From: Candidatus Latescibacterota bacterium | GTDB taxonomy: Bacteria > Latescibacterota > UBA2968 | Assembly (NCBI GenBank): GCA_965116885.1 | Contig: OZ220741.1 | Span: forward strand, 1,408,001 to 1,472,000 | Direction of reading: 5' to 3' | DNA: 64,000 nucleotides | Shown: positions 45,145 to 62,967 of the stretch, one piece after another | Layout: every line of letters starts with the position of its first letter | How positions within the stretch are numbered: position 1 is the stretch's first letter | The notes under the pieces: generated by a model | Databases searched by the model: none | Told to the model about the DNA's origin: nothing | The model's input: the letters and a program-made list of their open reading frames with translations, nothing else | Program-made: the position numbers and the translations under genes

Positions 45145-45249
45145 CGTACCACCTCGAGATTCTGGTCTCATCAGGACGGCTATATTTTGTCTTGAATTGT
45201 GGGGCATTACATGATATGCTTATTTTGCGGAAGAAAAAATAAAAATAAA

Positions 45250-45283
45250 AGGCATACTTCACCCGTCAAAGCAAAGTATGCCT
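45250..45283. promoter_or_regulatory. Conserved inverted repeat (candidate operator), copy A
   Basis: AGGCATACTT-N14-AAGTATGCCT; identical arms at 63493-63526. Confidence 0.6.
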
Positions 45284-45391
45284 CCGACCATATCACCAAC
45301 CCATAAGCGAGTTGGCTTGATAAATAATTTCTATTCTTCGATGCTCGTTGTCGAAATTTTTTTTATACAATTCACACAGTTGAGGGACGCG

Positions 45392-45526
45392 ATGGTGAAT
45401 GAGGTCGTGACCATCAGGGTCTCCACACACCTTAAACAACATTGCGGCACACTTGTAATGATGATGACCAGGCATTTTAATAAAAAAAGAGCGGGTCCTT
45501 TTTGGCTCGCTCTTTTCAATACTTAA
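45392..45526 (+). pseudogene. 5' stub of the XRE-HTH/pentapeptide gene
   Basis: MVNEVVTIRVSTHLKQ matches MVNEVVATRISKHLKQ at 63636; homology ends at about 45440. Confidence 0.7.
45482..45516 (-). terminator. Rho-independent terminator closing the RiPP operon
   Basis: Minus strand AAAAGAGCGAGCC-loop-GACCCGCTC-TTTTTTT. Confidence 0.75.
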
Positions 45527-45596
45527 CGCAGAACTAAAGATGCTTGAGATGTTATCAGTGAGGTCCTAACAGGAAGGCCCACAGAGATCTCCAATG

Positions 45597-46943
45597 CTAT
45601 AATTTAAAGACGTGATCTTTCTTTCCCGATACAACCTGCGTGGCATTGCGCGTATCGACAATATAGCGCGCGTGCTTTACTATCCATTCATAATCCCAAT
45701 CGCTGTGATGGGTCACAATCACCACACAATGGGCTTCTGTTATATTTTTTTTATTCAAAGAGGTACTCTTCAAGTCCAAACTTTCTGTCTGCAAGTGATC
45801 TACAAACGGATCGCAATACGAGACTTTCGCCCCTTTCTCCTGAAGCATTTCTATAATATCCAATGCCGGCGACTCGCGAATATCGCGTACATCGGGTTTG
45901 TACGTCACGCCCAATATCAGGATGTTCGCGCTCTTCAAACACCGCTCGTATTCGTTGAGTGCGTCGGTGATTTTTTCGACCACATAGCCCGGCATGCTGC
46001 GCGTCACTTCGCTGGCCAATTCGATAAAGCGCGCATTGTAATTTAAGGTCTTGAGCTTCCAGGCCAGAAAGTGAGGATCAACTGGAATACAATGCCCGCC
46101 CAACCCAGGACCGGGATAAAACGGCATAAACCCAAACGGCTTGGTCGCTGCGGCATCGATTACTTCCCAAACATCCACCCTTAGCCGGTCACACATCAGG
46201 GCCACTTCATTGACGAGGCCGATATTTACACTGCGAAAAGTATTTTCGAGCAACTTGGTCATTTCAGCAGCCTGGGTCGATGAGACCGGTACGACTTCGC
46301 CGATCAATTGTCGGTAAAAATGCGTGCCTATTTCTGTGCAAGACGGGGTAATACCCCCCACGACTTTGGGCGTATTGGTGATGGTATAAACTTTATTGCC
46401 CGGATCGACGCGCTCTGGAGAAAATACCAGAAAAAAATCTCGACCAACTTTCAAGCCACTTTCTTCGAGCAGGGGCAATACCAGTTCATGGGTCGTACCT
46501 GGATACGTCGTGCTCTCCAAAATCACCAGTTGTCCGCAGCGCAGTCGGTCTTTGATTGCATCACATGCTTGTACAATAAATGAGACATCCGGATCGCGTG
46601 CTTTATTCAAGGGTGTGGGCACACATACCACGACCACATCGGCTTCATTGAGCACATTGAATTCTTGTGTTGCTGTCAGTTTTCCCACAGCTTTAAGACT
46701 TGTCACCTCAAATTCCGATACACCCTGCACATCGGACTTTCCCGATTCTACTATCTTTACTTTGCGGGCGGATGTATCGATTCCCGTGGTGGAAAATCCC
46801 GCCTTACCTAATGCCACAGATAAAGGCAATCCCACATACCCCAATCCCATCACTGCCACCTGTGCCTCGTGTGACGCGATCTTCTCCTCCAGAATCTGTC
46901 TGGAATCGACGCTTCCCCAGGGTAATCTTTCTGTCAGGGCCAT
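45597..46943 (-). CDS. UDP-N-acetylhexosamine 6-dehydrogenase (WecC/WbpA family)
   Basis: GLGYVGLP, CVPTP, LESTTYPG, SPERVDPG, KLLENTFR, GPGLGGHCIPVDP. Confidence 0.93.
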   Translation of the reverse strand: MALTERLPWGSVDSRQILEEKIASHEAQVAVMGLGYVGLPLSVALGKAGFSTTGIDTSARKVKIVESGKSDVQGVSEFEVTSLKAVGKLTATQEFNVLNEADVVVVCVPTPLNKARDPDVSFIVQACDAIKDRLRCGQLVILESTTYPGTTHELVLPLLEESGLKVGRDFFLVFSPERVDPGNKVYTITNTPKVVGGITPSCTEIGTHFYRQLIGEVVPVSSTQAAEMTKLLENTFRSVNIGLVNEVALMCDRLRVDVWEVIDAAATKPFGFMPFYPGPGLGGHCIPVDPHFLAWKLKTLNYNARFIELASEVTRSMPGYVVEKITDALNEYERCLKSANILILGVTYKPDVRDIRESPALDIIEMLQEKGAKVSYCDPFVDHLQTESLDLKSTSLNKKNITEAHCVVIVTHHSDWDYEWIVKHARYIVDTRNATQVVSGKKDHVFKL

Positions 46944-46988
46944 TGTGTCATCCTCTCAGAATAAATCTATTTGATTTTCAGGACAGGA

Positions 46989-48095
46989 TTAACTTTTTAA
47001 TTCAGCAACGATTCGCTCTGCGGCATTGCCATCCCACAACTCAGGTAAGCGACCAGATTTATAGTGCCCATTCAAAACAGATTCAGCCTTTGCGACAATG
47101 CGTTCGGGACAAACGCCCACCAGTGTGTTCGTCCCAATATCTATAGTCTCTGGTCGTTCTGTATTCTCTCTAAGCGTCAAACACGACACACCCAAAGCCG
47201 TCGTCTCTTCTTGCAATCCCCCTGAATCTGTCATCACAAATTTTGCATTCTTCTGAAGTTTCAAAGAATCGAGATAGCCCACCGGATCCATAAGTTTGAT
47301 ATGGTCCATCATCTCAAGCTTTTGCAAAAAACCGAATCCGGACAGGCGATTGCGGGTTCTCGGATGCAAAGGCCACGCGATGGGACATTTGAGGGCTTGC
47401 AACGCGGATGCAATACCAGCCAACGTATCTGAACAATCGACATTTGAGGCGCGATGGAGGGTTAGAAAAACGTATTCTCGAATCGATAAACCGTGTATGT
47501 CCAGAATGCGGGATTCATCGGCTTTGGGGGATAGCAACATCAGAGAATCTATCATCACATTGCCCACAAAATGAATGCGGCTCTCTTCTATGCCTTCGCG
47601 CCTCAGATTTTCACATGCCTGCATTGAAGGTGCAAACAGAAGATCGGATATAGCATCCACCACAATTCGATTGATCTCTTCGGGCATTGACCGATCCCAA
47701 CTTCGCAACCCCGCCTCTATGTGTCCAACGGGAATTTGCAATTTCGCGGCATCCATCGCACAGGCTAAAGTGGAATTTACGTCACCGACGACAAGCACCC
47801 AATCTGGTTTTTCCGACAATAAAACCTCCTCAAAGCCCATCATGATCTGCGCTGTCTGGTGCGCGTGACTGCCCGACCCCACATTCAATTCATAATGCGG
47901 TCTGGGTAGATTTAAGTCTCGAAAGAAAATATCGGACATCAGATCATCGTAGTGTTGTCCCGTATGGACCAGAATCGGCTCAAACCAATCGGGTGTCTCG
48001 GTCAGTTGATTCCACAGCGGGGCAACTTTCATAAAATTGGGTCGCGCACCTGCAACAAGGATAATTTTCACCTGTGTTCTCCTCAATGGTGTCAT
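46989..48095 (-). CDS. wecB: UDP-GlcNAc 2-epimerase (non-hydrolysing)
   Basis: GARPNFMK, HTGQHY, GDVNST, HIEAGLRS, MPEEINR, TDSGGLQEE, TERPE. Confidence 0.95.
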   Translation of the reverse strand: MTPLRRTQVKIILVAGARPNFMKVAPLWNQLTETPDWFEPILVHTGQHYDDLMSDIFFRDLNLPRPHYELNVGSGSHAHQTAQIMMGFEEVLLSEKPDWVLVVGDVNSTLACAMDAAKLQIPVGHIEAGLRSWDRSMPEEINRIVVDAISDLLFAPSMQACENLRREGIEESRIHFVGNVMIDSLMLLSPKADESRILDIHGLSIREYVFLTLHRASNVDCSDTLAGIASALQALKCPIAWPLHPRTRNRLSGFGFLQKLEMMDHIKLMDPVGYLDSLKLQKNAKFVMTDSGGLQEETTALGVSCLTLRENTERPETIDIGTNTLVGVCPERIVAKAESVLNGHYKSGRLPELWDGNAAERIVAELKS

Positions 48096-49282
48096 TTATT
48101 TAACACACGATTATAGATGTCAAGCCACTGTGCTGTTTCTTGAGTTGGAGAAAATTGGTTTTCCACTTTATGTTTTGCGGTCTTCCCAAGCCTTTTTCTC
48201 AGTTCTGTATCCTCAAGTAATAGTTGCAATTTTTGGGATAACATATTGGCGTCACCAGAGGCAACAAGAAGGCAATCCCTATTATCTTCAACTATATCAA
48301 GAATACCACCAACTTGAGAGGCCACAATGGGCAGTTCGCAGGCCATCGCCTCCAAGAGTGCATTTGGTGAACCTTCATGAAGCGAAGGGAAGGCAAAAAT
48401 ATCCATCTCCCTCATCCACGCCATCACTTCTCGATGTGGAATATAACCCGTAAATACAATGTGCCTTTTTATCCCCAGATCACTGATCTGCTGCAACATA
48501 TCTCTTTTATAGGATTCTTGTGCAAACTGACCTACAACGAGCAAATAAGAATCGGGATAAACTTTAACAATCTCTCCAAATGCCTGTAAGAGAATGTGAA
48601 ACCCCTTTATAGGCCGCAAAAATCCAGCAGTTCCAATGACTGTGCCACCTTGTGATTTCATCCGTAAAAAGGTTTCAGTAAGTACTTGCAGTCTATTATT
48701 ATGCTCTCCTGTTATTTCTGGCAGTGCGCGTACATCAAATATTGACACATCAAAAACATTGGGGATGACCTTTCCTGCTTTGATGCTTACCGTTCGACGC
48801 ATTTTTTGCATGAGTTCAGATGATACTGACGTTACATAATCGGCCCGTTCTAATACCCACCTTAGATTTGCTAAGTGTTGGATGCTATAGCGCAAGACTT
48901 CCCAATCGCTACCTCGAACACTGGCGATGAAAGGTCGCTCAATTTCAGCAGCCACGACTGCACCTAAAAAGCCAGGAGGCATAAGAAAAGCTGCATGAAC
49001 CAGGTCAAAACGCTGTTTCTGATGGAGTTTTACAATGTAGTTACCAAGCACCTGTAAACCATGCGGATCAGCATGATAATCTGATAATATTGAAAAAGTC
49101 CGATGTACTGTCACCCCATCTTCTACGACAGGTGAAATTTTATCTCTTAATTGATGGGGACCCGGCGCAATAATATGGATATTGACATCCCTTTTTGCCA
49201 GATTCTGGGCAATCCGATAAATTGCACTTCCCACTCCTCCTGGGTATGGTGGATATTGGTAGGTAACCAAGCAGATGTTCAT
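48092..49282 (-). CDS. GT4 glycosyltransferase
   Basis: PYPGGVG, KGF, PSLHEGSPNALLEAMA (E-x7-E). Confidence 0.92.
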   Translation of the reverse strand: MNICLVTYQYPPYPGGVGSAIYRIAQNLAKRDVNIHIIAPGPHQLRDKISPVVEDGVTVHRTFSILSDYHADPHGLQVLGNYIVKLHQKQRFDLVHAAFLMPPGFLGAVVAAEIERPFIASVRGSDWEVLRYSIQHLANLRWVLERADYVTSVSSELMQKMRRTVSIKAGKVIPNVFDVSIFDVRALPEITGEHNNRLQVLTETFLRMKSQGGTVIGTAGFLRPIKGFHILLQAFGEIVKVYPDSYLLVVGQFAQESYKRDMLQQISDLGIKRHIVFTGYIPHREVMAWMREMDIFAFPSLHEGSPNALLEAMACELPIVASQVGGILDIVEDNRDCLLVASGDANMLSQKLQLLLEDTELRKRLGKTAKHKVENQFSPTQETAQWLDIYNRVLNK

Positions 49283-49292
49283 GCTTACCTCC

Positions 49293-50600
49293 TCAGTGTA
49301 TGCCTGGTGTTCTTGGCTTTCGTATCACCAGCAGGCCCCATCGCACTATTGTCTTAGTTGATCTCATCAGCCTTTTCATCATTCGATATATAGCAAAACT
49401 TAACATCAAGATGAGTAGAGAAGGAAAAAAGAACCTTGACAGGGCACTCCCAATATTTTTCCAATCTCCAGCGGCAAAGCCGCTTATTATCTCGCTAAAA
49501 GTCTTATATACAAGACCGGGATAGTTTGAAATCAAATCGGGAAAGAGAAAAAAAATCTTGTAAAAGAACAAGACGAAGAAGCTGGCACTGACAATTCCAT
49601 ACACGCAGAGAAACGATTTTATCTTCCCACTGATGCGTAAAAAAATAGGTTCAGCAATCTCTCTCTCTCTTAAAATGAAACGCTTGACAAAGTATTTCAG
49701 AATTTCTAAAGATCTTTTTCTGAGATTTGGCACGCCTGCTATATCTGAAAAAAGCCAATACCCATCAAATCGGAAAATTGGATTCAAGTTAAACAGTGCT
49801 GACCCGTAGTTAAAAAGAATCAAAAATAAAAACACGCTACTTGCTGTCGTCAGATACAGTATGAAGAGTATAGGAATAAAAATAAGCTGAAAATATATAC
49901 CTCCGAAATCCACCATCGCACGTTGCATTCTCGGTAGCCTCCAGGCATCCGTTACATTAGAATAAAGAACGGGAAAGCGCAGATACAATCCTATCCCAAT
50001 CTCTCCGGGTGACGCGCCATAATAAGCACAAGCTGAAGCATGACCTAACTCGTGGAAAATCCCTAAAACACCAAAAATTATCAGCGTTAGAATCGTATCT
50101 TGAAACGAAATATCATAAATAGTAAAGTCTATGACTTGGAGTTGAAAAAAATAGAAATACCCAAAAAAGACAAAAGAGAAAAAAATAAAAGAGATCAAAA
50201 TTTTTGGATAAAAAAGAGTCTTGAGAATATTACTAACGGCATGAACCGCATTCGCCCGCATAAAAGGGTATTGAAAATAAAAATACGAATTGCTTGTTTG
50301 AGCATCTACATCTGAGGTTGTATTTTCAAGGATTCCGTAGGGTTTTAGAAATGAATGGATAATTGCAGCAATGTCTTTGGCAGAGTATGTCTTATTCCTG
50401 ATAGAAGAGTATGCGCTTGCAATTTCAGACAGCGTTTTTTTGCCGTCTATCAACTCGATGATTTGATAGACACCCTCGCTTATTTCAAACCGTTTCGTGC
50501 CTATGCACAAAACATAACTTTCCTCTACTAAAGCGGTATCGAATTTATACATAGAGATTTTCGGAACCAACTTAATCGGATCTGGTAGGGATTCTTGCAT
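49293..50600 (-). CDS. M50-type membrane zinc peptidase with N-terminal PqqD/RRE-like domain
   Basis: HELGH, NLNPIFRFDGY, TM helices; N-terminal IIELIDGKKTLSEIA typical of PqqD-like RREs. Confidence 0.82.
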   Translation of the reverse strand: MQESLPDPIKLVPKISMYKFDTALVEESYVLCIGTKRFEISEGVYQIIELIDGKKTLSEIASAYSSIRNKTYSAKDIAAIIHSFLKPYGILENTTSDVDAQTSNSYFYFQYPFMRANAVHAVSNILKTLFYPKILISFIFFSFVFFGYFYFFQLQVIDFTIYDISFQDTILTLIIFGVLGIFHELGHASACAYYGASPGEIGIGLYLRFPVLYSNVTDAWRLPRMQRAMVDFGGIYFQLIFIPILFILYLTTASSVFLFLILFNYGSALFNLNPIFRFDGYWLFSDIAGVPNLRKRSLEILKYFVKRFILREREIAEPIFLRISGKIKSFLCVYGIVSASFFVLFFYKIFFLFPDLISNYPGLVYKTFSEIISGFAAGDWKNIGSALSRFFFPSLLILMLSFAIYRMMKRLMRSTKTIVRWGLLVIRKPRTPGIH

Positions 50601-50750
50601 GGTGTATTCCTGTCTTGACTCTAAGAGACTATTTTAAAAATCCTTCCGGGAGCGCAGGCGTCACGCTGTTTTCACCCATCGCCTATTTGGTCCCAAATGG
50701 ACATGAGAATGCTTTGTCTATGCAAGTCTCTGAGGGTTTTAAAATAGCTT

Positions 50751-51752
50751 CTAAGGGTTTTCGGTTTCCATTACAAGTTTACTCACTCGATCAATTTCTT
50801 GCTCCTTATGTTTTTGCAGATTGCGGAGCAAAACGGACATTTCAGATATGCTATGGTCAATCGCAATCTCCCAGTCCGTGCAGGGTACCTGATGAACATA
50901 AGACAATGCCTGTCTATAGCAATCTATTGCATGATCGAGAATTTCTTCTGCCAGCCCTGTAAAGTAAATCATACGCGCAAGTTCTTCCAGGGTAACGGAT
51001 TCTAATTTTTCGTGAAGCTCCTTTCTGTCAATGATTTGAGACAAAAGGTACGAATATCTGCCAGCGATAAAGTCATCTCTCCAATTTTTAAGATCATTAT
51101 GAAATTGTAAGCCCGTAAAAAAGGCATCTAAGGATTTTTCAAGAAGACGGATCAATTCCGGTGAGTCAGACAAACAGGCTAAAGCAGTTGTCACCATCTG
51201 GATTGTGGCGGCTTTACCAGAGGCAATATCAAACGCCTCATCCAATGAATAAAATGTGGGATTATTCCATTTTGTTCTTTCTTGTAGTGTTGCAGCAATG
51301 GCGCGACGCTGATACTTTTTGGCAAAGGCCCAAAAATCCGAACCTGGGGGGAATAAGTCATTGAGAAGACCAAACGCATGATCTCTCAAAAGAGAAGCAA
51401 AAAAATAGGCATCTACTTTGAGAGTCTCCCGCTCATCAAAAACATCATCCATATACGATGTGTAGATGTATAATGACCGATTGACAAAATACAATTTCTG
51501 CTGTGTGTCTTCGTCCAGGACAAATACCTCCGAGAACTGCGATGTAAAGGAAGTATGTACATCAGTGGATAGAAATACGGGATATTGTTTTAGGGCAGCC
51601 TCCAGATCATATTCTTCACATATCTGAGACATAAATTGATAAAATTCGACTTCGGATTTTTTGATTGAGATATCATCTTGAAGACCAAAGTTCAGTGAAG
51701 CAATTTCATCCTCAATAGAGGCAAAGGGGTCTGATGGCAAATGTGTATTCAT
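50751..51752 (-). CDS. Class I isoprenoid-synthase-fold protein (candidate ComQ-like peptide prenyltransferase)
   Basis: DDVFD (DDxxD), SGKAA, GLQFHNDLKNWRDD second metal motif. Confidence 0.7.
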   Translation of the reverse strand: MNTHLPSDPFASIEDEIASLNFGLQDDISIKKSEVEFYQFMSQICEEYDLEAALKQYPVFLSTDVHTSFTSQFSEVFVLDEDTQQKLYFVNRSLYIYTSYMDDVFDERETLKVDAYFFASLLRDHAFGLLNDLFPPGSDFWAFAKKYQRRAIAATLQERTKWNNPTFYSLDEAFDIASGKAATIQMVTTALACLSDSPELIRLLEKSLDAFFTGLQFHNDLKNWRDDFIAGRYSYLLSQIIDRKELHEKLESVTLEELARMIYFTGLAEEILDHAIDCYRQALSYVHQVPCTDWEIAIDHSISEMSVLLRNLQKHKEQEIDRVSKLVMETENP

Positions 51753-51809
51753 GTCAAGGTCCTTTTTGAAAACTTTAAAAAGAGATAGGTTTCTGAATCA
51801 ATTCATAAA

Positions 51810-54440: not shown

Positions 54441-54565
54441 AATGAACTCTGAATAAACCGTGAGTGAGGTTTTTTAGGGATGATGTCCCGCTATCATCAC
54501 GATAAGGCCGTCTGCCTTGGTGAAATACAAATTCGGATAGTGCATCGCCTATAGACACCGGAATA

Positions 54566-57500
54566 TTATGGCGCGAAAGGGTGGCGTGGTGTGATTTTAT
54601 CCACAAAACGCCATCGTACCGCATCGGCATACAAGGTCCCCTTTGCGCGGTCAGACAATTCGACTACAGCCTCTACTCCCTCGACAAATTTGTATCGCCC
54701 CAGGTGATTCCAGCCCGCTTTCATAAGATCGCGCTCCATTTCAAGCGTATCGACCTTATCCGCGTGAAAAACAGTAAGTGTAAAGGTCGTACCAATGCCC
54801 TCGCGCCTGGCTATTGCGGGATCGGGAAAATAGAAGCCCACATCAAACTCGCCATCTCTGGGGATTCGCGCGGCCCACACAGCCGGCTGTGCGCCATCGC
54901 CCGGTTTCTTTTGCCGATAATTTTTTGTATACCGCCCATAAGCTGTCGGCAGGCTACGCTCGCGCCAGTTGCCCCCTTCAAGACCGGGACGAGAGTAGCG
55001 CGTCGTTCGCCGAATCGGCATTGAAAATCCCTTGTCGTCATTATCTACAATGATCTCAAAAGGCCCCATATCTGCACGGATTACATCCCCTTCTCCTGTC
55101 ACATCTTTGAGATAGGCCATGGGAGTCCCCCCTGTAACCTGTTCAGGAACGCGCACAGGAGAGATAAGCGGTTGGCGATTGCGTGCAAAAAAGGGTTCGA
55201 CGATCACCCGCAAGGGTTGCTCCCACAGCACCATCGAAACTTCGATTTCCTGACCGCCTTCAATCTCTACGCCCTTTACTGCCTCATCATTTTGACCAAT
55301 GGCCGTGATTTGCACATAGCCCCTGCCGGGTTCGCTATTCTTAATGCGCACAATCAGTTGGTAAACTAGCGTTCCGGAGCCATCGTCTACCTTCAAGGCT
55401 TTTACACTTGTCAATTTATAGCCCGGGATTTCCGTGCTATATATCCAATCTTTAACCAGACGCTGTAATCTCTGGCGATTTTCATCTTCGGTGTAGCCTG
55501 CGGCGGCACGTTCAAAGGTCGAAAAATCGATGTCCTTGTATTTGTAATTCTGGCTAATGTCGGCCAAGAAGGTGCGGAATGTTTCTTCACCCAAAAAGGA
55601 GGCGAACATCCCAAAGAGTGCAGGCCCCTTGGCGTCGAGAGCCTGGCGATAAAGGTCCGCCTCCTGTTCGGGATCTAAATCGGCAAATGACTTGCCCTGC
55701 ATCTCGGCAATCAGCTTGTTCCAAGCTCTCGTTTTTCTTCTGCTTATAAACGCCGCCTCGCGCGCCCTGTCACTGTTGCGTCGTTGGCTTGGGTAAAAAG
55801 CGGCTGTTAGATCGGTTCTCAAGTCATTCTGTAGATACATGGGCAGACCCTTTTTAAGCAGGGCATAATGGTCGCCCACAAACTGCTTGTCATAAGCCCA
55901 GAGTTGAAAAACAGGGCTACGAAACAGTCCATTGGATTTTATTGCCGCGTTTTCTTCAGAAAAAAAAGTTGAAAAAATGGCGCGTATCAAAATATCCTTT
56001 TTAACATTTTTGGGATCTTGATTCGATTGCTTTTGTTTCTTTTGGATAACCACCTGCCGCAAGAGCACATCTTCTTCAATCATCAACACGCCCGGCTGTG
56101 TCAGGCCGCCCTTTTCTTCCCAGCCTTCGTAATACCACTGAATATGGAACGGAACTTCCACCAGTGAAAGGCTCGGATAGGGATATTTCATGCCAGATTC
56201 CTGTTCCATGAGATCCACGATTTGCCCGAGCGCACGCACAATCTCTTTTTTTGCACCTTCAAAAAATTTAATCGGACGCAGATGTGAAGGATGCACGTAA
56301 AGGGCACATTCGATGTCGTGAATGGTGGCGCGATACACGCGATATACACCAGCATTGAGCGATAGGACAGGCACGGGATTTTCAACAACCCATTGGCGGG
56401 TCACTTGTGTGCCGAGGGTATCGGTCTTGCCGATCTGCCCCTGGGTAATGACTTCGAGACCTTTGGGAAATGTGATATGCAAGTTGGCCGTTGAAAAAGA
56501 GACCGGGCGCGCATTTTTATAGCCATAATCAACGCCCGTGACGGGATACCAGCGGCTTCGCGGCGGCAAAAAGATGGACTTGTCGCGAATCCACGCCGTC
56601 AAAGAGCCACTGTACCCCTTATCTTTCCGCAACCTCGGTTTGCCTTTTTCTCGCTTGAGATCAAAACCATCCGTGTTAATATCACCCGCATATGCTAACG
56701 TCAGATCGAGTTTTTGTTCCGATTGCAGGGGGGTAGTGGGCACGACACTAATCACGCTTTCCGTCCGCTCCCATGCTATTGCTCTGCCATCAGCGTGCGT
56801 CAGACTTTGGATTTTGAATCCGGGATTGAGTGAAAGAATCAACGTATCGAGCGGGGATTCGTGAGGATTTCTCAAGCTAATCGTGCCAGAGGTTGTAAGT
56901 AGCTCCTCTCCCAAAAGCGTCAATGCCAGATCGTAATGGGTGATTTCCGCTACGGAAATATGTGCAATCGCTTCCTGCTGCGCGAGCAAGGACTGGCGAT
57001 ACGCTTGCCTATTTCGAGCTTCCGCATCCACATAAAAGTAAAGACCAGCAGCCAATCCAAAACCGGTCAACGCACATCCCCAGCCAAACCACCGCGCAGT
57101 CGCAGAATGTGCAAGACGGGGATATCGATCAATCGCAAATCCCAAAAAACTTATGCCGAGCAAAATGTAAAACACGCGTTGCAAACCCACTTGCGTCATA
57201 TTCCCTATGCCCATCAGGTCCGAATAATCCATGTGGGTCGCAAGAGAAATGAAATCGAAGAGGTCGGGATATTGTTTGCCCAGATATAATATCACAGCGA
57301 GCGAATACGCTGTTGCGACCAAGGCAGCCGCTATTGGACGACGCAGCAAGACGCCTAAAAAAAATGTCAGAGAAGACATAAAAACCAAGGCGGGTAGGTT
57401 CAAGAGCACGAGGTATAAAATATAAGGTTTGACTGTCAGTGGATTGCCCGTCATGCTGATCGTTGCTGCCTGAAGGCCCAGAGTCAAAAACAGGATCCCA

Positions 57501-57856
57501 AGGCTAAAAAAGAAAAGCGCGCTAACCGTGCCCAGATACTTACCCGCAACCAGTTCTGCCGTTGAAATAGGACGCCCGGCAACTACTTCATAAATGTGGG
57601 CATTTTCGTCAGCCGCTCTAAAAGACCCCGCCATAAATGGAATGACAAGGGTTTGAAATAAAGTGTATATAAGAAAAAGAAAGTAAGATTCTTTTCCCGG
57701 AGGCATTCCAAATTCAGTATCTATGGCAAGACGAATGCCGTAATAAACGAAAATGCCCAAGGGGAAGATGCCCAAAATGCGAAATTTTGTAGTTCTCAAA
57801 AGCATTTTGCGCTCATAGCGTGCAACACCAAGTATATTGTTGAGAATAGAGAACAT
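54566..57856 (-). CDS. ABC permease fused to degenerate M1-aminopeptidase-like domain and C-terminal beta-sandwich
   Basis: N-terminal TM block (RPISTAELVAGK); LNPG, WYP, YPY..L.LVEVP M1 scaffold without HExxH; GWNHLG...ADAVRW tail; start MFSILN with AGGAG SD. Confidence 0.75.
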   Translation of the reverse strand: MFSILNNILGVARYERKMLLRTTKFRILGIFPLGIFVYYGIRLAIDTEFGMPPGKESYFLFLIYTLFQTLVIPFMAGSFRAADENAHIYEVVAGRPISTAELVAGKYLGTVSALFFFSLGILFLTLGLQAATISMTGNPLTVKPYILYLVLLNLPALVFMSSLTFFLGVLLRRPIAAALVATAYSLAVILYLGKQYPDLFDFISLATHMDYSDLMGIGNMTQVGLQRVFYILLGISFLGFAIDRYPRLAHSATARWFGWGCALTGFGLAAGLYFYVDAEARNRQAYRQSLLAQQEAIAHISVAEITHYDLALTLLGEELLTTSGTISLRNPHESPLDTLILSLNPGFKIQSLTHADGRAIAWERTESVISVVPTTPLQSEQKLDLTLAYAGDINTDGFDLKREKGKPRLRKDKGYSGSLTAWIRDKSIFLPPRSRWYPVTGVDYGYKNARPVSFSTANLHITFPKGLEVITQGQIGKTDTLGTQVTRQWVVENPVPVLSLNAGVYRVYRATIHDIECALYVHPSHLRPIKFFEGAKKEIVRALGQIVDLMEQESGMKYPYPSLSLVEVPFHIQWYYEGWEEKGGLTQPGVLMIEEDVLLRQVVIQKKQKQSNQDPKNVKKDILIRAIFSTFFSEENAAIKSNGLFRSPVFQLWAYDKQFVGDHYALLKKGLPMYLQNDLRTDLTAAFYPSQRRNSDRAREAAFISRRKTRAWNKLIAEMQGKSFADLDPEQEADLYRQALDAKGPALFGMFASFLGEETFRTFLADISQNYKYKDIDFSTFERAAAGYTEDENRQRLQRLVKDWIYSTEIPGYKLTSVKALKVDDGSGTLVYQLIVRIKNSEPGRGYVQITAIGQNDEAVKGVEIEGGQEIEVSMVLWEQPLRVIVEPFFARNRQPLISPVRVPEQVTGGTPMAYLKDVTGEGDVIRADMGPFEIIVDNDDKGFSMPIRRTTRYSRPGLEGGNWRERSLPTAYGRYTKNYRQKKPGDGAQPAVWAARIPRDGEFDVGFYFPDPAIARREGIGTTFTLTVFHADKVDTLEMERDLMKAGWNHLGRYKFVEGVEAVVELSDRAKGTLYADAVRWRFVDKITPRHPFAP

Positions 57857-57933
57857 GGGATTACTCCTGTTTAAGCGATCAGCTTTCAGCCTCTCCCTCC
57901 ACATCTAAAGGCGAGAAGCGAGCCTTGTTTTCT

Positions 57934-58833
57934 TCATCCCGCGATTTCATCAGCGGTGTTGCTGCCCATAAAATAGAGATATGCATCTTCGAGATTGGGT
58001 GCGACCACTTTGGCATCAGCGGGTGGCTCGCCATCGCCCACCATCCGAACACTCAGGCGATCACCTTCAACATTGACCGTCACCACATGAAACACACGCG
58101 ACAGCTTTTCAAAGTGAGGCTCATCAACACGTATTTGCCACGTCTTGCCATCGGCCTTTGAAATGAGGTCTGATGGAGAGCCGCGAAAGATCAGTTGTCC
58201 ACGATTCAAAATCGCGAGATACTTGCAAGTGCTCGAAATATCACCCACAATATGCGTAGAGATCAAAATTACACGATCGCTGCTCAAGCGACCTAAAATG
58301 CCTCGAAACCGGATGCGTTCTTCCGGGTCAAGCCCCACAGTCGGTTCATCGACAATCAGAAAACCTGGATCGGTCAAAATGGCCTGTGCAATGCCAAGAC
58401 GCCGTATCATGCCACCGGAAAACGTACCCGTGCGCCGCTTGCGTGCATCGTACAACCGGACTTCATTCAATGCTTGTTCAACACGCGCCAAACGCTCGCT
58501 CTTATTGTGGATGCCACCCAAAACAGCCATATAATCAAGAAATTCCCAGGCGGTTAGTTGTCGATAGGTGCCAAAATTTTGTGGCAAATATCCAAGGCGT
58601 CGGCGAATTTCTGTGCGGTCTTTTACCAGATCGAACTCATCCATGGTCACGCTGCCACTCGATGAGTCCATTTGGGTCGATAAAATTTTAATCAGTGTTG
58701 TTTTGCCCGCGCCATTGGGTCCCAGTAGGCCAAATGTTCCGTGAGGAATGCTCAAGGTGATATCGTCCAGGGCAGGCGCATCGCCGCGCCGATATGTTTT
58801 TGTCAGGTTTGAGATGCGAATGACCATCAGCAT
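57934..58833 (-). CDS. ABC transporter ATP-binding subunit
   Basis: GPNGAGKT, FSGGM, IVDEPT, STH. Confidence 0.95.
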   Translation of the reverse strand: MLMVIRISNLTKTYRRGDAPALDDITLSIPHGTFGLLGPNGAGKTTLIKILSTQMDSSSGSVTMDEFDLVKDRTEIRRRLGYLPQNFGTYRQLTAWEFLDYMAVLGGIHNKSERLARVEQALNEVRLYDARKRRTGTFSGGMIRRLGIAQAILTDPGFLIVDEPTVGLDPEERIRFRGILGRLSSDRVILISTHIVGDISSTCKYLAILNRGQLIFRGSPSDLISKADGKTWQIRVDEPHFEKLSRVFHVVTVNVEGDRLSVRMVGDGEPPADAKVVAPNLEDAYLYFMGSNTADEIAG

Positions 58834-58872
58834 GCCTCCTGAATATTTTACGCGATCAAAAAAGTATAAGAA

Positions 58873-58921
58873 TGGTCAAGACCACCTATCTTTTGACAAA
58901 CAATATAAGTGGTCTTGACCA
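58873..58921 (-). terminator. Stem-loop downstream of the precursor gene
   Basis: Perfect 13-bp inverted repeat TGGTCAAGACCAC / GTGGTCTTGACCA, extendable with a G-U pair. Confidence 0.65.
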
Positions 58922-59013
58922 GCAAACTAAGCAAAGACCTCTAACAATAACTTCTACGGCTTGCTCCTACAGTCCTCAATACCACAATATTATTACTGCC
59001 GTAGAGCTCGCTA

Positions 59014-59250
59014 TTAGCTGTCGATCGTGCAGTCGTGTTCTCCACAAGAGCCTCCGCCGATGTCTTTTCCACAGTCATGCCACAGACAAAAGCCATCATC
59101 ATCATCCGTGGTGCAGTCATGAGTGATGCACCACATTTCCAACCTTTCTTCAAGCGCATCAACGACCAGATCCTCATAGAGTTCAGGATACGACGCGATG
59201 TGTGCTTTGAGTTCAATCTCTGAAGAGATGTGAGCAGACAAATTAGCCAT
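59014..59250 (-). CDS. Putative RiPP precursor peptide (39-aa leader + 39-aa Cys/His/Asp core)
   Basis: AGGAGG SD 8 nt upstream; directly after the rSAM gene; core WCITHDCTTDDDDG FCLWHDCGKDIGGG SCGEHDCTIDS. Confidence 0.85.
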   Translation of the reverse strand: MANLSAHISSEIELKAHIASYPELYEDLVVDALEERLEMWCITHDCTTDDDDGFCLWHDCGKDIGGGSCGEHDCTIDS

Positions 59251-59345
59251 GATACTACCCTCCTGGTGTTGAAACGTGAACAGATAACATCGGCGTTTCT
59301 ACTACTTATCACACATAATGCCTCCTTTCTCGAGCGTTATACTTA

Positions 59346-61052
59346 CTATAAAGTTTGTTGTTTGTACTCCTCAAATACCTCAGGCACGACCGTATGGAAA
59401 ACCTTGGGATACTCATCGCAATAGGACGTTTTGATATTGCCATCATTTTTTACATAAGCATGTGCAGCACATCCACCGCCACAAAAGAATGCATATTTGC
59501 ACTTACTGCAAGATGGCACATTAGAAATATTCCGATCATACCATTCTGATAAATGTTCATCATTGAATTCAACTTTATCCAAATAATTTCCAACTTTGTA
59601 CCGGTCTACACCCACCAATTCCCAACACGTATAGAGGTCTCCATAAGGATCAAGGATCAACATACCGTTCTGTGCGCCACAGAAGATGGGCCTAAAACTT
59701 AATAGCCCTTTACCATCAAGAGCTCGCTTGAAGGTCTGTCTAATGCCAGCATCTTGGCAAGAAATTTGGTGCATTAAGTCGGGATTTTCTTTTACAAACT
59801 GATAGTATTTGCGAGTAAACTCTCTTCTTGGCATCACCGAAACTTCTCCATTTTCAGAACGTACGGATTCCATTTCAAGCACAATGGGGCTTGTGCCTTT
59901 GCGGTAGTTCGAAAAAATTTCTTCCTCTCGTTCCACATCGATATATTGCTCTTCATCTATGTACACTCCAGGATCAAAAATTTCCTGTTCCTGGGGCTCA
60001 TTGTCCTTGAAAGATATGACAGAGGCAACAGACTCGGAGGGTTCAGAATCTGATGTTGGTGCTTCAATTGAAATAAGAGGTGCCGTCTGACCATAATTGC
60101 CTGGCGTCTTTTTACCAGACATTGTAGCACTACACGACATGCCTTCTTCAATCTGATGTACCAAGGCAGAATAGGCCGAAAATTTCGGATACTCTGTAAA
60201 TCCTCTATCTTTGAACAAATCAAATAATGCAGGTAAAATATCCACATTGTCGTAATCTGTATTGATTCGCATTGAAACTTGCACATCAAGCGACAGAGCA
60301 AGTGCCACATTTTTCATGATCGCACCAAAACTATCTCCTGCACGATAATGTGGACGCTTGCGATTGTGATTTTCTTCTTCGCCATCTAAGGTAATCTGGA
60401 GGCGTCTGATTTTTTGGGGACCTAATAAATCCGTGAAATGATGAAGGTCATAGCCATTTGTAATCGCAGAAAAGATGTAATCGCGTTTCAAACCTTCATC
60501 TACAATATACCGCACGATCGCTTTATTTTTTGCTAACAAAGGTTCTCCCCCATACAGAGTAATGTTCTTGCTATGCATGGCTCTGTTGGGTTGAATTTCG
60601 CACATGGCCTGGTATGCCCGGTCAACCATCTCCTTTGTAAAGACTTGCTTTGACCAGCCCTTGCCATGAGATGAAATGTCATTTTCAAAACAATAAGGAC
60701 AGCGGAAGTTGCAATCGTAGGCCACCAAGAATAAGAAAGATGCAGAGCTTTGGCTTGAGTTGTGGTGGAGAAAATTCGCCATGCTATGCACGTATTCTCG
60801 TTCTTCCACAGGAGAACGACTGGTCAGATAGCCACGCTTCATTAAGGTTTGGATCGTTTCTTTTGAACAAGGCAGTTCATCAAACATATCTTCCGAGAGA
60901 ACAACCTTGCTTTTGATCATCTGAGCGACTTTTTTATTTACTCTATCTATTGCGCCTGTATAGCCATGAACGAGCAAAGTGTAATCTGGATCTTCAGGCA
61001 GCTTGACACAAATCGTATAGGACGATACGCGATATAATTCTGAATTTGCCAT
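59346..61052 (-). CDS. Radical SAM/SPASM peptide maturase
   Basis: CNFRCPYC, YGGEPLL, ITNG, QITLDG; SPASM CGA...DPYGDLYTC...CSKCKYAFFCGGGC...C; N-terminal RRE-like region. Confidence 0.93.
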   Translation of the reverse strand: MANSELYRVSSYTICVKLPEDPDYTLLVHGYTGAIDRVNKKVAQMIKSKVVLSEDMFDELPCSKETIQTLMKRGYLTSRSPVEEREYVHSMANFLHHNSSQSSASFLFLVAYDCNFRCPYCFENDISSHGKGWSKQVFTKEMVDRAYQAMCEIQPNRAMHSKNITLYGGEPLLAKNKAIVRYIVDEGLKRDYIFSAITNGYDLHHFTDLLGPQKIRRLQITLDGEEENHNRKRPHYRAGDSFGAIMKNVALALSLDVQVSMRINTDYDNVDILPALFDLFKDRGFTEYPKFSAYSALVHQIEEGMSCSATMSGKKTPGNYGQTAPLISIEAPTSDSEPSESVASVISFKDNEPQEQEIFDPGVYIDEEQYIDVEREEEIFSNYRKGTSPIVLEMESVRSENGEVSVMPRREFTRKYYQFVKENPDLMHQISCQDAGIRQTFKRALDGKGLLSFRPIFCGAQNGMLILDPYGDLYTCWELVGVDRYKVGNYLDKVEFNDEHLSEWYDRNISNVPSCSKCKYAFFCGGGCAAHAYVKNDGNIKTSYCDEYPKVFHTVVPEVFEEYKQQTL

Positions 61053-61105
61053 AAGAAAACCTCCCTTGGATTGCGTGGGTATTATATTTTTTTATCCATA
61101 TACGC

Positions 61106-61294
61106 TTATTTTGCGAAATAGAGACATATTTCACCAGCCAATAACGATTGTTGTTCTATCTCTCTATTTTGCTGGCTCATTCTACGCATCATCGCGCGCA
61201 AGGCTTCAGATCGAACTTCATCGTTCCAGATAGCATAGAGTAAGGCGAGATGAGCCAAATGATCGCGTTTTGTTATCTGTGTCTGAGCATTCAT
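61106..61294 (-). CDS. Small protein (62 aa), first gene of the RiPP operon
   Basis: GAGGTG SD; paralogue at 42216-42383. Confidence 0.7.
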   Translation of the reverse strand: MNAQTQITKRDHLAHLALLYAIWNDEVRSEALRAMMRRMSQQNREIEQQSLLAGEICLYFAK

Positions 61295-61345
61295 AAGTCA
61301 CCTCAGTAAATTCTGATGTCGTTATTGTCTTTGCACGTTATATAT

Positions 61346-61361
61346 GGCAAGATGCGTGCCA
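61346..61361 (-). promoter_or_regulatory. Sigma54 promoter of the RiPP operon
   Basis: TGGCACGCATCTTGCC. Confidence 0.88.
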
Positions 61362-61383
61362 TAAACTCGTTCGAAATAAAAAA

Positions 61384-61413
61384 AAGCACTTGAATACGCT
61401 CAAGTGCTTGAAA
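61384..61413. promoter_or_regulatory. Inverted repeat / IHF-like site between enhancer and promoter
   Basis: AAGCACTTGA-N6-TCAAGTGCTT; minus strand TTTCAAGCACTTG resembles WATCAA-N4-TTR; related site at about 42472-42500. Confidence 0.55.
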
Positions 61414-61467
61414 AATAAAAAGATAAAACTTTTATGTTTTAAGTGCTATAAGAGCAAAAGGGATTAA

Positions 61468-61509
61468 GTGCAACATTCATGTTACACTTTTGGAACATTC
61501 ATGTGGCAC
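61468..61509. promoter_or_regulatory. Tandem palindromic upstream activator sites (copy B)
   Basis: GTGCAACATTCATGTTACAC and TTGGAACATTCATGTGGCAC, offset by 22 bp, 107-148 bp upstream of the -24 box. Confidence 0.65.
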
Positions 61510-61578: not shown

Positions 61579-62967
61579 CTATCTGTAAGTGGATACATCT
61601 ATGGTATATTTGGAGATTAACCGTTGCAGCCTGTGGCGATTCATTCCATTCTGTCTGGCTGCACGGGACACATTGCCGTTGTGCGCTTTGAGGAGGCGGT
61701 CAATAAAAGTCCGCTCAAATTTCTCAATCACGGCATCTTTGGCGTCCTGGAAAGGTAAATCGGTCTGCGCGGAAACAATGGTATCTCCGGTCTGAGCGAT
61801 TAAATTTTCAGGTAAATCCTCGATCTGGATCGCATCCGCATCTGATAGGGCCATGGCTCGCTCCATCACATGCATCAGTTCTCGCACATTGCCTGGCCAG
61901 ATATATTCGCACAATACATCCATCGCCTCGGTTGAAATACCTTGAATCGCCTTTTCAGAGGTCTCGGCAAAGTCGTTCAAAAAGTGATGAGCAAGAAGTT
62001 GAATATCTCCATGCCGATCCCTCAGAGGTGGCAGGTGAATCTCAAAGGTGTTAATCCGATAAAACAAGTCCTCTCGAAACCTGCCCTCTCCAATCAATGC
62101 CTCGATATTCTGATTGGTAGCCGAGATGAGACGGATGTCGATTTCTATCTCCTCATTGCTTCCCAGCCTGCGAATTTTGTGATCTTCCAGAACGCGCAAG
62201 AACTTCACCTGAAGGGGCATGGGCAATTCCCCGATTTCATCGAGAAAAAATGTCCCGCCCTTAGCGTGTTCGATTAACCCAACGCGGTTCTGTTTCGCAT
62301 CTGTGAACGCCCCTTTCGCATGACCAAACAGTTCACTTTCAACCAGATGCTCTGGCAGGCCCCCACAGTTGAGCGGAACAAACGGCTTATGGCTGCGCTT
62401 GCTATTTGCGTGAATACACTGAGCCACCAGTTCTTTTCCCGTTCCACTTTCTCCCGTGATCAGGACATTGGCATCTATATCGCTGATTTTTCGTATTAAA
62501 TCAAAGACCTGGGTGATCGCTACACTATTCCCGATGATGTTTTCGAACCGGAATCGCGTATCCAGCATTTGTTTGAGATCTCTGTTCTCCAACCTCACAC
62601 GCCGCAGTTTCAGTGCCCGTTCTATGACGATTAAAAATTCCTCTGGATCAAACAGCTTTTGAAGAAAGTCGAATGCGCCTGCCTTTATGGCTTCAACAGC
62701 ACCTTCGATGGTTCCATATCCCGTAAAGACGATCACAATAGCCTCTTGATCGCGTGCCATAATGCTTTGGAGCACAGCCATCCCGTCCATTCCGGGCATT
62801 TTCAAATCTACAATGACCAGATCGGGATTTTCCGTCTCGAACAACGCGAGACCTGCCTCACCCGACTCTGCTACGACAACAGCGTACCCCGCTGCCTCCA
62901 GAAACTTCTGGCAACCGCGCAACATATCCTGCTCGTCATCTATTACGAGGATTTTCTCTTTGTCCAT
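61579..62967 (-). CDS. Sigma54-dependent response regulator (copy B)
   Basis: REC/AAA+ near-identical to 42632-43987; different C-terminal HTH. Confidence 0.95.
   Translation of the reverse strand: MDKEKILVIDDEQDMLRGCQKFLEAAGYAVVVAESGEAGLALFETENPDLVIVDLKMPGMDGMAVLQSIMARDQEAIVIVFTGYGTIEGAVEAIKAGAFDFLQKLFDPEEFLIVIERALKLRRVRLENRDLKQMLDTRFRFENIIGNSVAITQVFDLIRKISDIDANVLITGESGTGKELVAQCIHANSKRSHKPFVPLNCGGLPEHLVESELFGHAKGAFTDAKQNRVGLIEHAKGGTFFLDEIGELPMPLQVKFLRVLEDHKIRRLGSNEEIEIDIRLISATNQNIEALIGEGRFREDLFYRINTFEIHLPPLRDRHGDIQLLAHHFLNDFAETSEKAIQGISTEAMDVLCEYIWPGNVRELMHVMERAMALSDADAIQIEDLPENLIAQTGDTIVSAQTDLPFQDAKDAVIEKFERTFIDRLLKAHNGNVSRAARQNGMNRHRLQRLISKYTIDVSTYR

Follow-up and report, generated by a model that had tools for sequence, protein, structure and literature searches.

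What product does a bacterium make from a gene unit in which a radical S-adenosylmethionine (rSAM) enzyme and a small Cys-rich peptide are encoded together with glycosyltransferases (GTs), an isoprenoid-synthase-fold protein, and a membrane protease? Such a unit occupies the minus strand from position 61361 to 45482 of a 64,000-nucleotide stretch of Candidatus Latescibacterota bacterium (assembly GCA_965116885.1, contig OZ220741.1, positions 1,408,001 to 1,472,000), which was analyzed as a whole and is hereafter called the window. A preliminary description, made from the sequence without database searches, had interpreted the unit as a candidate new system for a peptide that is made on ribosomes and then modified after translation (RiPP), bearing cross-links, sugars, and prenyl groups. 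The gene cluster described there was confirmed as real, and it very probably encodes an rSAM-modified RiPP; with slightly more confidence than doubt, we also favor the full reading of the locus as a sigma-54-controlled operon for a so far undescribed RiPP family in Candidatus Latescibacterota.

The unit comprises twelve co-oriented open reading frames (ORFs) separated by −4 to 180 nt, eleven of which are the parts named in the preliminary description, and the gene order and strand, from a sigma-54 promoter to a terminator, proved to be as claimed there. Five of these genes form a conserved core:

59346..61052, minus strand: radical SAM/SPASM maturase, 568 aa (Pfam Radical_SAM; NCBIfam SPASM domain)
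59014..59250, minus strand: precursor peptide, 78 aa with 6 Cys, with an AGGAGG ribosome-binding site
50751..51752, minus strand: class-I isoprenoid-synthase-fold protein, 333 aa (AlphaFold2 model and Foldseek), syntenic in 4 of 4 loci
49293..50600, minus strand: M50/site-2-type intramembrane metalloprotease, 435 aa, with an N-terminal soluble domain that is a possible RiPP recognition element (RRE), HELGH at residue 183, and 5 hydrophobic segments
48092..49282, minus strand: GT4 glycosyltransferase of 396 aa, starting 10 nt beyond the end of the protease gene, with synteny kept in 4 of 4 loci

This core emerged from the comparison, by tblastn and Pfam scans, of the window with three related loci, which were found in a scan of one genome per species and all belong to metagenome-assembled genomes of Candidatus Latescibacterota (L001 and L003 in OZ241986.1, L002 in OZ244028.1), L001 being the nearest to the window. 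The rSAM/SPASM, precursor, isoprenoid-synthase-fold, M50 protease, and GT4 genes are present in 4 of 4 loci, with identities to the window of 82–86% for the rSAM enzyme, 76–88% for the 333-aa protein, 78–84% for the protease, and 80–85% for GT4, and the genes flanking the core differ between loci. Equal longest-contig values, namely 4411 for rSAM P0023 and precursor P0292, 4590 for P0035 and P0293, 4994 for the 333-aa relative P0016 and precursor P0295, and 522650 for P0006 and P0027, suggest that the co-occurrence extends to further contigs.

The precursor family provides the evidence on the nature of the product. Nine distinct precursors were aligned, comprising those of the window, L001 (identical to P0297), L002, and L003, together with P0292–P0296; there is one copy per locus, a search with the leader gave no others, and the precursor has no Pfam or NCBIfam match. 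In the window peptide, a conserved leader of 39 aa closes with LEERLEM and is followed by a core of another 39 aa, which contains 6 Cys and 10 Asp and Glu residues and has CTIDS at its C-terminus. Across the nine sequences, the first 39 alignment positions, which run to the leader end LE(E/D)RLEM, include 24 that never vary, and the hypervariable core has no invariant position at all; likewise, nucleotide identity between loci amounts to 0.83–0.90 in the leader and 0.54–0.65 in the core. A conserved leader joined to a divergent core reads as the standard signature of a RiPP precursor, and the RiPP-type cluster with a Cys-rich peptide that had been proposed is thereby upheld over nine members.

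The nine cores, of 24–49 residues each, total 349 residues with 65 Cys, 65 Asp, 1 Lys, and 0 Arg, and are thus polyanionic. Positional statistics over 2000 within-core shuffles revealed a pronounced regularity: of the 65 Cys residues, 29 have Asp or Glu at +3 (against a shuffle mean of 13.8), and 39 have Asp, Glu, or Asn there (against 16.9), both values being reached by 0 of 2000 shuffles. Position +4 is weakly enriched (20/65, reached by 69/2000 shuffles), and +2 and +5 are depleted. Consecutive Cys residues are separated by exactly five positions in 21 of 56 gaps, where shuffling gives a mean of 4.7 and never attains the observed value (0/2000). The acidic enrichment at +3 and the five-residue Cys gaps together yield a repeating unit Cys-x-x-Asp-x, a rhythm kept in every core except that of L003. 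The cores end in Ser (6/9) or Thr (3/9), eight of the nine closing with the pattern C-x-x-[DN]-[ST], as in the CTIDS of the window. Since they are strongly acidic and without basic residues, the products are unlikely to be classical cationic bacteriocins; metal or mineral binding, signaling, or a surface glycolipopeptide are candidate roles for the peptide.

Which reaction might be applied to this rhythm is suggested by the maturase. The rSAM enzyme has a CX3CX2C motif at residue 114 and a SPASM domain with the full 7-Cys motif (C458-X12-G-X4-C476, C515X2C518X5C524X3C528, C545), on which the TIGR04085 SPASM model scores 61.7 bits, exceeding its cut-off of 27. Its best NCBIfam models are CefB (129.5 bits), the geopeptide maturase (119.6), PapB (115.7), TIGR04463 (109.1), and SCIFF (99.1), and its best solved relative is CteB (5wgg, E 2.2e-19). 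The rSAM reaction is not assigned by homology, because these scores lie below every curated maturase cut-off. According to the available text of PMC9413430, PapB joins the Cys sulfur to the Asp β-carbon in six CX3D motifs and tolerates n = 0–6, and in the available text of PMC12373016 it reportedly also joins Cys to the C-terminal residue. Cys-to-Asp(+3) thioethers would be the most economical reading of the donor–acceptor statistics in the nine cores.

The system shares with the ranthipeptides (PapA/PapB freyrasin; SCIFF/CteB) an rSAM/SPASM maturase with an N-terminal peptide-binding part and a repeated Cys-Xn-Asp in the precursor, with CteB as the best solved relative and PapB among the best models. 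It differs from them in its spacing, which is mainly X2 in a five-residue rhythm rather than X3, in scores three to four times below the family cut-offs (PapB 115.7 vs 340; SCIFF 99.1 vs 425), and in an acidic rSAM insertion of ~145 residues (about 300–445, with 27 Asp and Glu) placed between the core and the SPASM domain. In the portion of the literature searched, no description was found of GT4, prenyl-synthase-fold, or M50 protease companions of ranthipeptides. The second comparison is with the Cys-every-fifth pair of NCBIfam (CefA, NF038108; CefB, NF038107), to which the system is linked by CefB as top model and by the enrichment of five-residue Cys spacing, but the rSAM score of 129.5 stands against an NF038107 cut-off of 600. 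Only one of the nine precursors touches the CefA model (E 0.0016), the other eight having no match and that of the window none at E ≤ 10. The Cys-every-fifth family itself appears uncharacterized, because a full-text literature search for the phrase found no paper. As for the rSAM family at large, 693 relatives were retrieved, sixteen at 81–93% identity and then 37–58% among the matches listed, those named being mainly Bacteroidota. Many of the Bacteroidota relatives have 455–500 aa and match no more than about half of the query length, and the rSAM family is broader than the rest of the cluster.

The 435-aa protease is the likely leader peptidase, as judged from its domain architecture. Its best NCBIfam model is daptide_HExxH (NF041824; 120.4 bits over residues 35–358, cut-off 300), followed by YydH/LiaK at 48.9 bits. 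In daptide biosynthesis, as far as the consulted text of 10.1101/2023.03.08.531785 goes, the leader peptidase is an RRE fused N-terminally to a site-2 protease. The window protein is comparable to DapP/MpaP in placing a soluble domain at the N-terminus, ahead of an HExxH membrane protease, and in having the daptide model as its best one; it differs in scoring below the NF041824 cut-off, and the present family departs from the daptides in its Ser or Thr core ends. Pfam and NCBIfam scans detected no homologues in the window of the enzymes that form daptides, namely the DUF-RRE protein, alcohol dehydrogenase, aminotransferase, and methyltransferase. Of the RRE-M50 peptidase proposed in the preliminary description, the M50-like part stands, together with a best match to the model of the RRE-fused daptide protease, and the RRE evidence is weak, as detailed below.

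The 333-aa protein extends the system beyond these precedents. Its AlphaFold2 model from a 53-sequence alignment reached a pLDDT of 89.6 and a pTM of 0.88, a model from 21 close sequences (pLDDT 51) having been discarded in favor of that alignment. Foldseek gave at least 500 PDB matches, 101 with E ≤ 0.001, and the list was headed by polyprenyl, octaprenyl, decaprenyl, and farnesyl diphosphate synthases (TMq 0.58–0.68, 12–16% identity). The DDxxD isoprenoid-synthase fold that had been read from the sequence is borne out by this model and by the lead of trans-prenyl diphosphate synthases among the structural matches. In a language-model atlas, rank 17 (score 0.94) was held by a cluster 47% of whose members carry PF00348; a close-family profile compared with PDB sequences gave 0 matches at E ≤ 10. 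The motifs are D102xxxD106, which we take to correspond to the first Asp-rich motif of prenyl synthases, and Q216xx(N/D)219-D220-xx-(N/D)223-W224-xx-D227, whose three ligand positions, spaced 1-5-9, presumably resemble the second metal-binding motif of class-I terpene cyclases (NSE/DTE triad). Only 22 relatives at 65–93% identity exist in a collection of 5.8 billion clusters, and a profile search of 1.84 billion representatives yielded 842 relatives at E ≤ 0.001, of which 302 reach E ≤ 1e-10 and 21 reach E ≤ 1e-30. Of 170 aligned relatives, the 164 that cover at least 200 profile positions gave the following counts of conservation:

D102: kept in 159 of 164
D106: kept in 162 of 164
W141: kept in 164 of 164
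E158: kept in 152 of 164
Q216: kept in 141 of 164
D219: kept in 156 of 164; Asn in 6, window included
D220: kept in 161 of 164; present in the window copy
D223: kept in 155 of 164; Asn in 7, window included
W224: kept in 160 of 164
D227: kept in 164 of 164; present in the window copy

The change of the N219/N223 type is also found in the close relatives P0001–P0006, which read HNDLKNW (HSDLKNW in P0006) as opposed to RDDLKDW. Inactivation by N219/N223 was considered and not adopted, D220 and D227 being kept and Asn also being able to ligate metal.

A known parallel to the 333-aa protein is ComQ, to our knowledge the sole peptide prenyltransferase of this fold. As in ComQ/ComX, a polyprenyl-synthase-fold enzyme with two acidic metal-binding motifs is encoded beside a ribosomal peptide; the differences are that the protein has no PF00348 match and has terpene-synthase-like fusions as relatives, and that the locus lacks a ComP/ComA-type receptor, the adjacent kinase having no membrane segment. 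Trp-Cys opens the core in six of the nine precursors.

A further enzyme of the core, GT4, has as its nearest solved relatives the BshA-type enzymes 2jjm, 3mbo, and 5d00, which attach GlcNAc to the malate hydroxyl, and shows a weak match to the model of the Ser-Asp-repeat O-glycosyltransferase SdgA (E 3.7e-10). Given this likeness to BshA and SdgA and the invariant terminal Ser/Thr beside Asp/Asn, O-glycosylation near the peptide C-terminus is at most a reasonable guess. A GT gene inside a RiPP cluster recalls the glycocins and cacaoidin. The GTs found here are two of GT4 type and a GT28_C/MGT-type one, combined with an rSAM enzyme, and they are distinct from the SunS/ThuS type of the glycocins, which belongs to GT2. 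Cacaoidin bears a disaccharide on Tyr, according to the available text of 10.1101/2020.05.20.105809.

Joining these parts, we infer a pathway whose chemical steps, step order, acceptor residues, and action of the isoprenoid-fold enzyme on the peptide are all worded here as a proposal, thioether formation and glycosylation conditionally and prenylation above all so. The conserved leader of the 78-aa precursor would be bound by the enzymes, and the rSAM/SPASM maturase would link each Cys to the Asp (or Asn/Glu) three residues on, giving a chain of small thioether rings; ring formation on Cys-x-x-Asp-x pentads would be ranthipeptide-type chemistry, as in PapB or CteB. GT4 and the isoprenoid-fold enzyme, which are always present, would then tailor the peptide, the likely target being the invariant C-terminal Ser/Thr region, which would gain a sugar and an isoprenoid. 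Finally, the M50 intramembrane protease would cut off the leader at the membrane. At this locus, the pathway may be extended by five further genes, which supply an ABC (ATP-binding cassette) exporter, an added GT4-GT1 enzyme, and UDP-ManNAc(A) through WecB and the dehydrogenase:

57934..58833, minus strand: ABC transporter ATPase, DrrA/GldA-like (Pfam ABC_tran 4.3e-30; NCBIfam drrA 190.8 bits)
54566..57904, minus strand: ABC-2-type permease fusion, 1112 aa, with an ABC-2 membrane part and a large extracytoplasmic part
51810..54440, minus strand: two-domain glycosyltransferase, 876 aa, with a GT4 domain (residues about 7–420) and a GT1/GT28_C-type domain (about 730–825)
46989..48095, minus strand: WecB, non-hydrolyzing UDP-GlcNAc 2-epimerase (TIGR00236 340.6 bits, exceeding the cut-off of 210)
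45597..46943, minus strand: NDP-sugar dehydrogenase, nearest to the UDP-ManNAc enzymes (TIGR03026 433 bits, exceeding the cut-off)

The UDP-ManNAc dehydrogenase models score 264.7 and 254.9 bits on the last of these, both below their cut-offs. The extracytoplasmic part of the permease contains a weak M1-like stretch without HExxH, plus Golvesin_C, and fusions of this 1112-aa kind are a widespread type. The ABC ATPase, permease, GT4-GT1 fusion, WecB, and dehydrogenase occur in the window and L001 only (2/4 loci); the ABC transporter, double GT, wecB, and dehydrogenase are accessory parts. The expected synteny of the GT and wecB genes with rSAM-precursor pairs therefore stands for GT4 (4/4 loci) and holds in half of the loci for wecB and the dehydrogenase (2/4) and for the double GT (2/4).

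In place of the accessory genes, L002 carries a 257-aa protein without family, two S41 peptidases, a DUF6785/DUF6784 protein, and a separate, stand-alone MGT-type GT1 at the position of the 876-aa GT of the window. L003 has a DUF5686/CarboxypepD_reg protein, an NAD-dependent sugar epimerase/dehydratase, and a methyltransferase between protease and GT4, along with the L002-type pair of a ~250-aa familyless protein and an S41 peptidase (66% and 73% identity to those of L002). This pair, of a ~250-aa protein and a peptidase of the C-terminal processing type, was located at 6615–8431 and 14266–15492 of L002 and at 14435–16225 of L003, and may act on the conserved peptide C-terminus; the loci that carry it are those without the ABC transporter. 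Searches of the window for the accessory genes of L002 and L003 (S41 peptidase with its 250-aa partner, DUF5686, DUF6785) found none. At 13786–16496 of L001, GT4 and wecB are split apart by inserted insertion-sequence fragments (HTH_Tnp_1, rve, and pieces of ISL3) together with a gene for a sulfotransferase, which marks the GT4/wecB junction as a break point.

Several results weigh against the proposed pathway. The inspected sample consists of 4 loci from at most three genomes, and one core, that of L003, is atypical in that it has 3 Cys and a tail of Gly/Ser/Asp repeats. The rSAM enzyme scores far below the cut-off of every named maturase, as the CefB comparison illustrates. The PqqD matches that would indicate an RRE in the protease are weak (E 0.0038 across residues 17–85; E 0.074 for the PqqD structure), and a four-sequence protease profile against the PDB, with chance-level matches only (PqqD E 0.66), did not confirm the RRE. 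The best models of the GT4 enzymes are polysaccharide or small-molecule GTs such as stp3, BshA, EpsE, and TuaC. The 333-aa protein has neither a Pfam match (E ≤ 0.01) nor an NCBIfam match, and the window copy has Asn at 219 and 223, where 155–156 of 164 relatives have Asp. Trp prenylation in the manner of ComQ, as put forward in the preliminary description, was rejected as the general reaction, because three of the nine cores contain no Trp anywhere. Lastly, among 30 relatives chosen for a Pfam scan from 150 listed, 12 have a squalene-hopene-cyclase-like C-terminal domain, and 17, including those 12, are longer than 400 aa; frequent fusion of the family to such domains indicates terpene metabolism rather than peptide modification.

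It is on this last point that the best-surviving alternative is built, namely that the peptide is cross-linked and glycosylated, and not prenylated, the 333-aa protein making a separate isoprenoid in a hybrid RiPP-terpene system or serving as a non-catalytic scaffold. The fusion of 12 of the 17 long relatives to a cyclase-like domain, as in bifunctional terpene synthases, would suit it, as would the derivation of 94 of the 164 domains in the tree from proteins longer than 400 aa, the limitation of conserved potential acceptors to Cys, Asp, and the terminal Ser/Thr, and the N219/N223 of the window copy. In the scanned relatives, PF00348 appears weakly in three, Terpene_syn_C_2 in one, and GldB_lipo in two, and the sister sequence P0143 scores 23.3 bits against the PF00348 cut-off of 27. 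Opposed to this are the strict synteny of the gene between those of precursor and protease in 4 of 4 loci and the retention of D220 and D227, the 219/223/227 spacing still giving three metal ligands. In the same tree, the 21 cluster-linked sequences are monophyletic (support 1.0) and nested among stand-alone and fused forms, and this clade has its own conserved N-terminal extension of ~35–60 residues, absent from remote relatives, which also speaks against a free isoprenoid or a scaffold. The 333-aa enzyme thus appears, from its relatives, to have been recruited from a terpene-synthase-like family, and we consider the separate-isoprenoid or scaffold explanation unlikely, though deserving of serious attention.

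Within that wider family, many of P0148–P0280 fuse the prenyl-synthase-like domain to a squalene-hopene-cyclase-like/prenyltransferase toroid domain (~650–720 aa), and some add a GldB-like lipoprotein domain. The family, of at least 842 representatives, has no Pfam model of its own, and these fusions were not identified in the portion of the literature on bifunctional terpene synthases that was searched.

A somewhat less probable alternative is that two unrelated pathways are interleaved here, a plain rSAM RiPP (with the rSAM, precursor, ABC, and protease genes) and an envelope glycan or glycolipid pathway (with the 876-aa GT, GT4, WecB, and the dehydrogenase) in which the prenyl-synthase-like protein would serve a polyprenyl carrier. 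The N-terminal half of the 876-aa GT best matches the PEP-CTERM/XrtA-system GT model TIGR04063 (336 bits, missing the cut-off of 442; MGT 3.3e-9), GT4 matches stp2, EpsE, and TuaC, the WecB/WecC-type genes are classic envelope-sugar genes, and the 333-aa protein comes nearest in fold to long-chain prenyl diphosphate synthases, all of which would be expected of an envelope pathway. The arrangement of the genes tells against it: the protease gene sits between the prenyl-fold gene and GT4, and both of the latter accompany the rSAM-precursor pair at all 4 loci, with non-core genes changing around them. A single operon is further supported by the start of GT4 10 nt after the protease gene and the 4-nt overlap of wecB with the GT4 stop. 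Moreover, Pfam and NCBIfam detected no initiating phosphoglycosyl transferase, flippase, polymerase, or chain-length protein among the operon ORFs, and a housekeeping enzyme for a carrier lipid would be commoner than the prenyl-fold clade, for which the 5.8 billion clusters hold only 22 relatives with at least 65% identity.

The third alternative, which we regard as quite improbable, concerns the rSAM step itself and supposes another reaction (epimerization as by YydG, sactionine α-carbon links, or C–C links) or a mainly metal-binding peptide. In its favor are the maturase scores, all below their cut-offs, the three C-x-x-H-D-C units of the window core and the polyanionic nature of the cores, and the weak matches of the protease to the YydH/LiaK and daptide types. 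Against another reaction, the strongest positional signal is that from Cys to D/E/N at +3, Cys and Asp being equal in number as fits donor–acceptor pairs, and thioether-forming enzymes account for both the best models and the best structure; against metal binding, His is not conserved among the nine cores. The analogy drawn in the preliminary description with the epipeptide locus yydFGHIJ of B. subtilis is one of layout only. The layout of rSAM enzyme, membrane metalloprotease, and ABC transporter is indeed shared, but the protease reaches 48.9 bits against a YydH/LiaK cut-off of 225, the rSAM enzyme has thioether formers rather than an epimerase model among its best matches, and two of the four loci have no ABC transporter. 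No YydG-type epimerase model is among the best 25 of the 60 NCBIfam models that match the rSAM enzyme.

That the product is a small cofactor-like molecule, bearing sugar and isoprenoid and made from the conserved C-terminal residues alone, the remainder being a disposable scaffold, recalls mycofactocin biosynthesis, which combines an rSAM/SPASM enzyme, a peptidase, and a glycosyltransferase, and would explain why C-x-x-[DN]-[ST] (8/9) and the terminal Ser/Thr (9/9) are the only conserved core positions, yet it is highly improbable, as the variable middle keeps the C-x-x-D-x rhythm in all cores but that of L003, hence is under selection as product, and an ABC exporter is present in two loci.

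With the thioether-ringed and tailored peptide as the favored product, there is still the question of how its operon is controlled. The elements concerned are the following:

61579..62967, minus strand: sigma-54-dependent response regulator, with receiver, AAA+ sigma-54 interaction domain, and Fis-type helix-turn-helix (HTH) (Sigma54_activat 1.2e-69; Response_reg 4.4e-30)
61466..61489, minus strand: near-palindrome of 24 nt, a 10-pair inverted repeat ~115 nt upstream of the −24 element
61384..61409, minus strand: terminator-like hairpin ending the activator gene, 11 pairs and a T-run
61346..61361, minus strand: sigma-54 promoter (−24/−12 element), TGGCACgcatcTTGC, matching the consensus TGGCAC-N5-TTGC
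61106..61294, minus strand: ORF of 62 aa, first after the promoter, function not assigned, with a GAGGTG ribosome-binding site
58858..58920, minus strand: perfect 12-bp hairpin (58920–58909 with 58885–58874) and T-run (58863–58858), 3' of the precursor gene, from sequence and fold
45482..45512, minus strand: terminator-like stem of the unit, GAGCG...CGCTC with inner pairs (45512–45489), and a 7-T run to 45482, from sequence reading

The promoter TGGCACgcatcTTGC stands directly after the terminator (61409–61384) of the sigma-54 activator gene 61579–62967, and its 15 bases recur at 42450–42436 and, in L001, at position 127. Because sigma-54 consensus matches in the window are not above chance (4 against 2.5 expected, with 25 of 100 shuffles reaching 4), the promoter call rests on position, the adjoining activator gene, and conservation in L001. 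The response regulator is the likely activator of the operon, and the near-palindrome, which is kept in L001 and not in the paralogous cassette at 42.5 kb, may be its binding site. The terminator hairpin of the activator gene is conserved in both the 42.5-kb cassette and L001. Inside the unit, the hairpin with T-run 3' of the precursor gene recurs in 4 of 4 loci and is likely a partial terminator, which fits the usual excess of precursor transcript. The stem closing the unit was read from the sequence and is not in the hairpin scan list, the scan having a loop limit of 8.

The regulatory cassette is present twice, flanking the operon at 42231–45475 and 61106–63701 of the window, in the order of a 60-aa His/Cys-rich ORF, a PAS histidine kinase, the sigma-54 response regulator, terminator, sigma-54 promoter, and 62-aa ORF. 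The DNA from promoter to small ORF aligns closely among both window copies and L001, and the two regulators (61579–62967 and 42632–43987) share 80% identity, differing in the C-terminal HTH part. The downstream copy (45475–42231) is complete. The kinase of the upstream copy (63418–63005) is a remnant consisting of the N-terminal part and the first half of the PAS domain, which matches residues 13–134 of the intact paralogue HK404 at 67% identity and is missing the HisKA and ATPase domains, so that the activator of the operon may depend on the downstream kinase. Lacking any membrane segment, the cassette histidine kinase does not readily suggest itself as the receptor of an exported peptide. 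The 62-aa ORF has no Pfam or NCBIfam match, is found in L001 at 76% identity, is absent from L002 and L003, and has a paralogue at 42383–42231 (80% identity over 51 aa); it is a member of this duplicated cassette and not specific to the peptide pathway. In the part list of the preliminary description, the domain assignments agree with ours, with the amendments that the permease is a 1112-aa fusion, that the small ORF belongs to the regulatory cassette, and that a strong hairpin with a T-run stands behind the precursor gene.

A second sigma-54 promoter, TGGCACGCATCTTGCT (42435–42450, minus strand), that of the downstream cassette, drives 40042–42383, which encodes the 62-aa-ORF paralogue, an outer-membrane β-barrel protein of 215 aa, and a protein of 473 aa that carries dockerin/EF-hand calcium-binding motifs. 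Upstream of the studied region, 30611–35731 encodes a 789-aa TMEM260-like protein O-mannosyltransferase as well as a rhomboid protease and an M23 peptidase that has an Ig-like domain. The G+C content of 40001–64000, operon included, is 0.39–0.49 with negative GC skew, and that of the left part (1–40000) is 0.44–0.55, mostly at least 0.49. Rfam and tRNA scans of the window gave no matches.

How new is the system, then? Its nearest defined families are the ranthipeptides, the Cys-every-fifth pair of NCBIfam, and the daptide protease, with scores below the curated cut-off of each. In the portion of the literature searched, supplements excluded, we found no description of an rSAM-precursor pair combined with GT4 and a terpene-synthase-like enzyme, in keeping with the earlier impression that the combination was unfamiliar. 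We rate the system as a ranthipeptide-like RiPP with a new tailoring set. The stronger claim, that it founds a new RiPP class of Cys-x-x-Asp-x pentad peptides which are thioether-ringed and then glycosylated by GT4 and isoprenylated, probably at the C-terminal Ser/Thr, is put forward tentatively and remains doubtful in our judgment.

The cluster gives a first functional context to the rare clade of the 333-aa protein and points to the larger family around it, at least 842 members strong and including the squalene-hopene-cyclase-like fusions. If the proposed pathway is true, a terpene-synthase-fold enzyme and a GT4 would be dedicated to a ribosomal peptide, and the class-I isoprenoid fold would have, after ComQ, a second use in peptide modification, the first with an acceptor other than Trp, found within an uncultivated phylum. 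The pentad Cys-x-x-Asp-x would then constitute a five-residue "ring code" whose number is free to vary among relatives, which would make it attractive for engineering compact thioether scaffolds.

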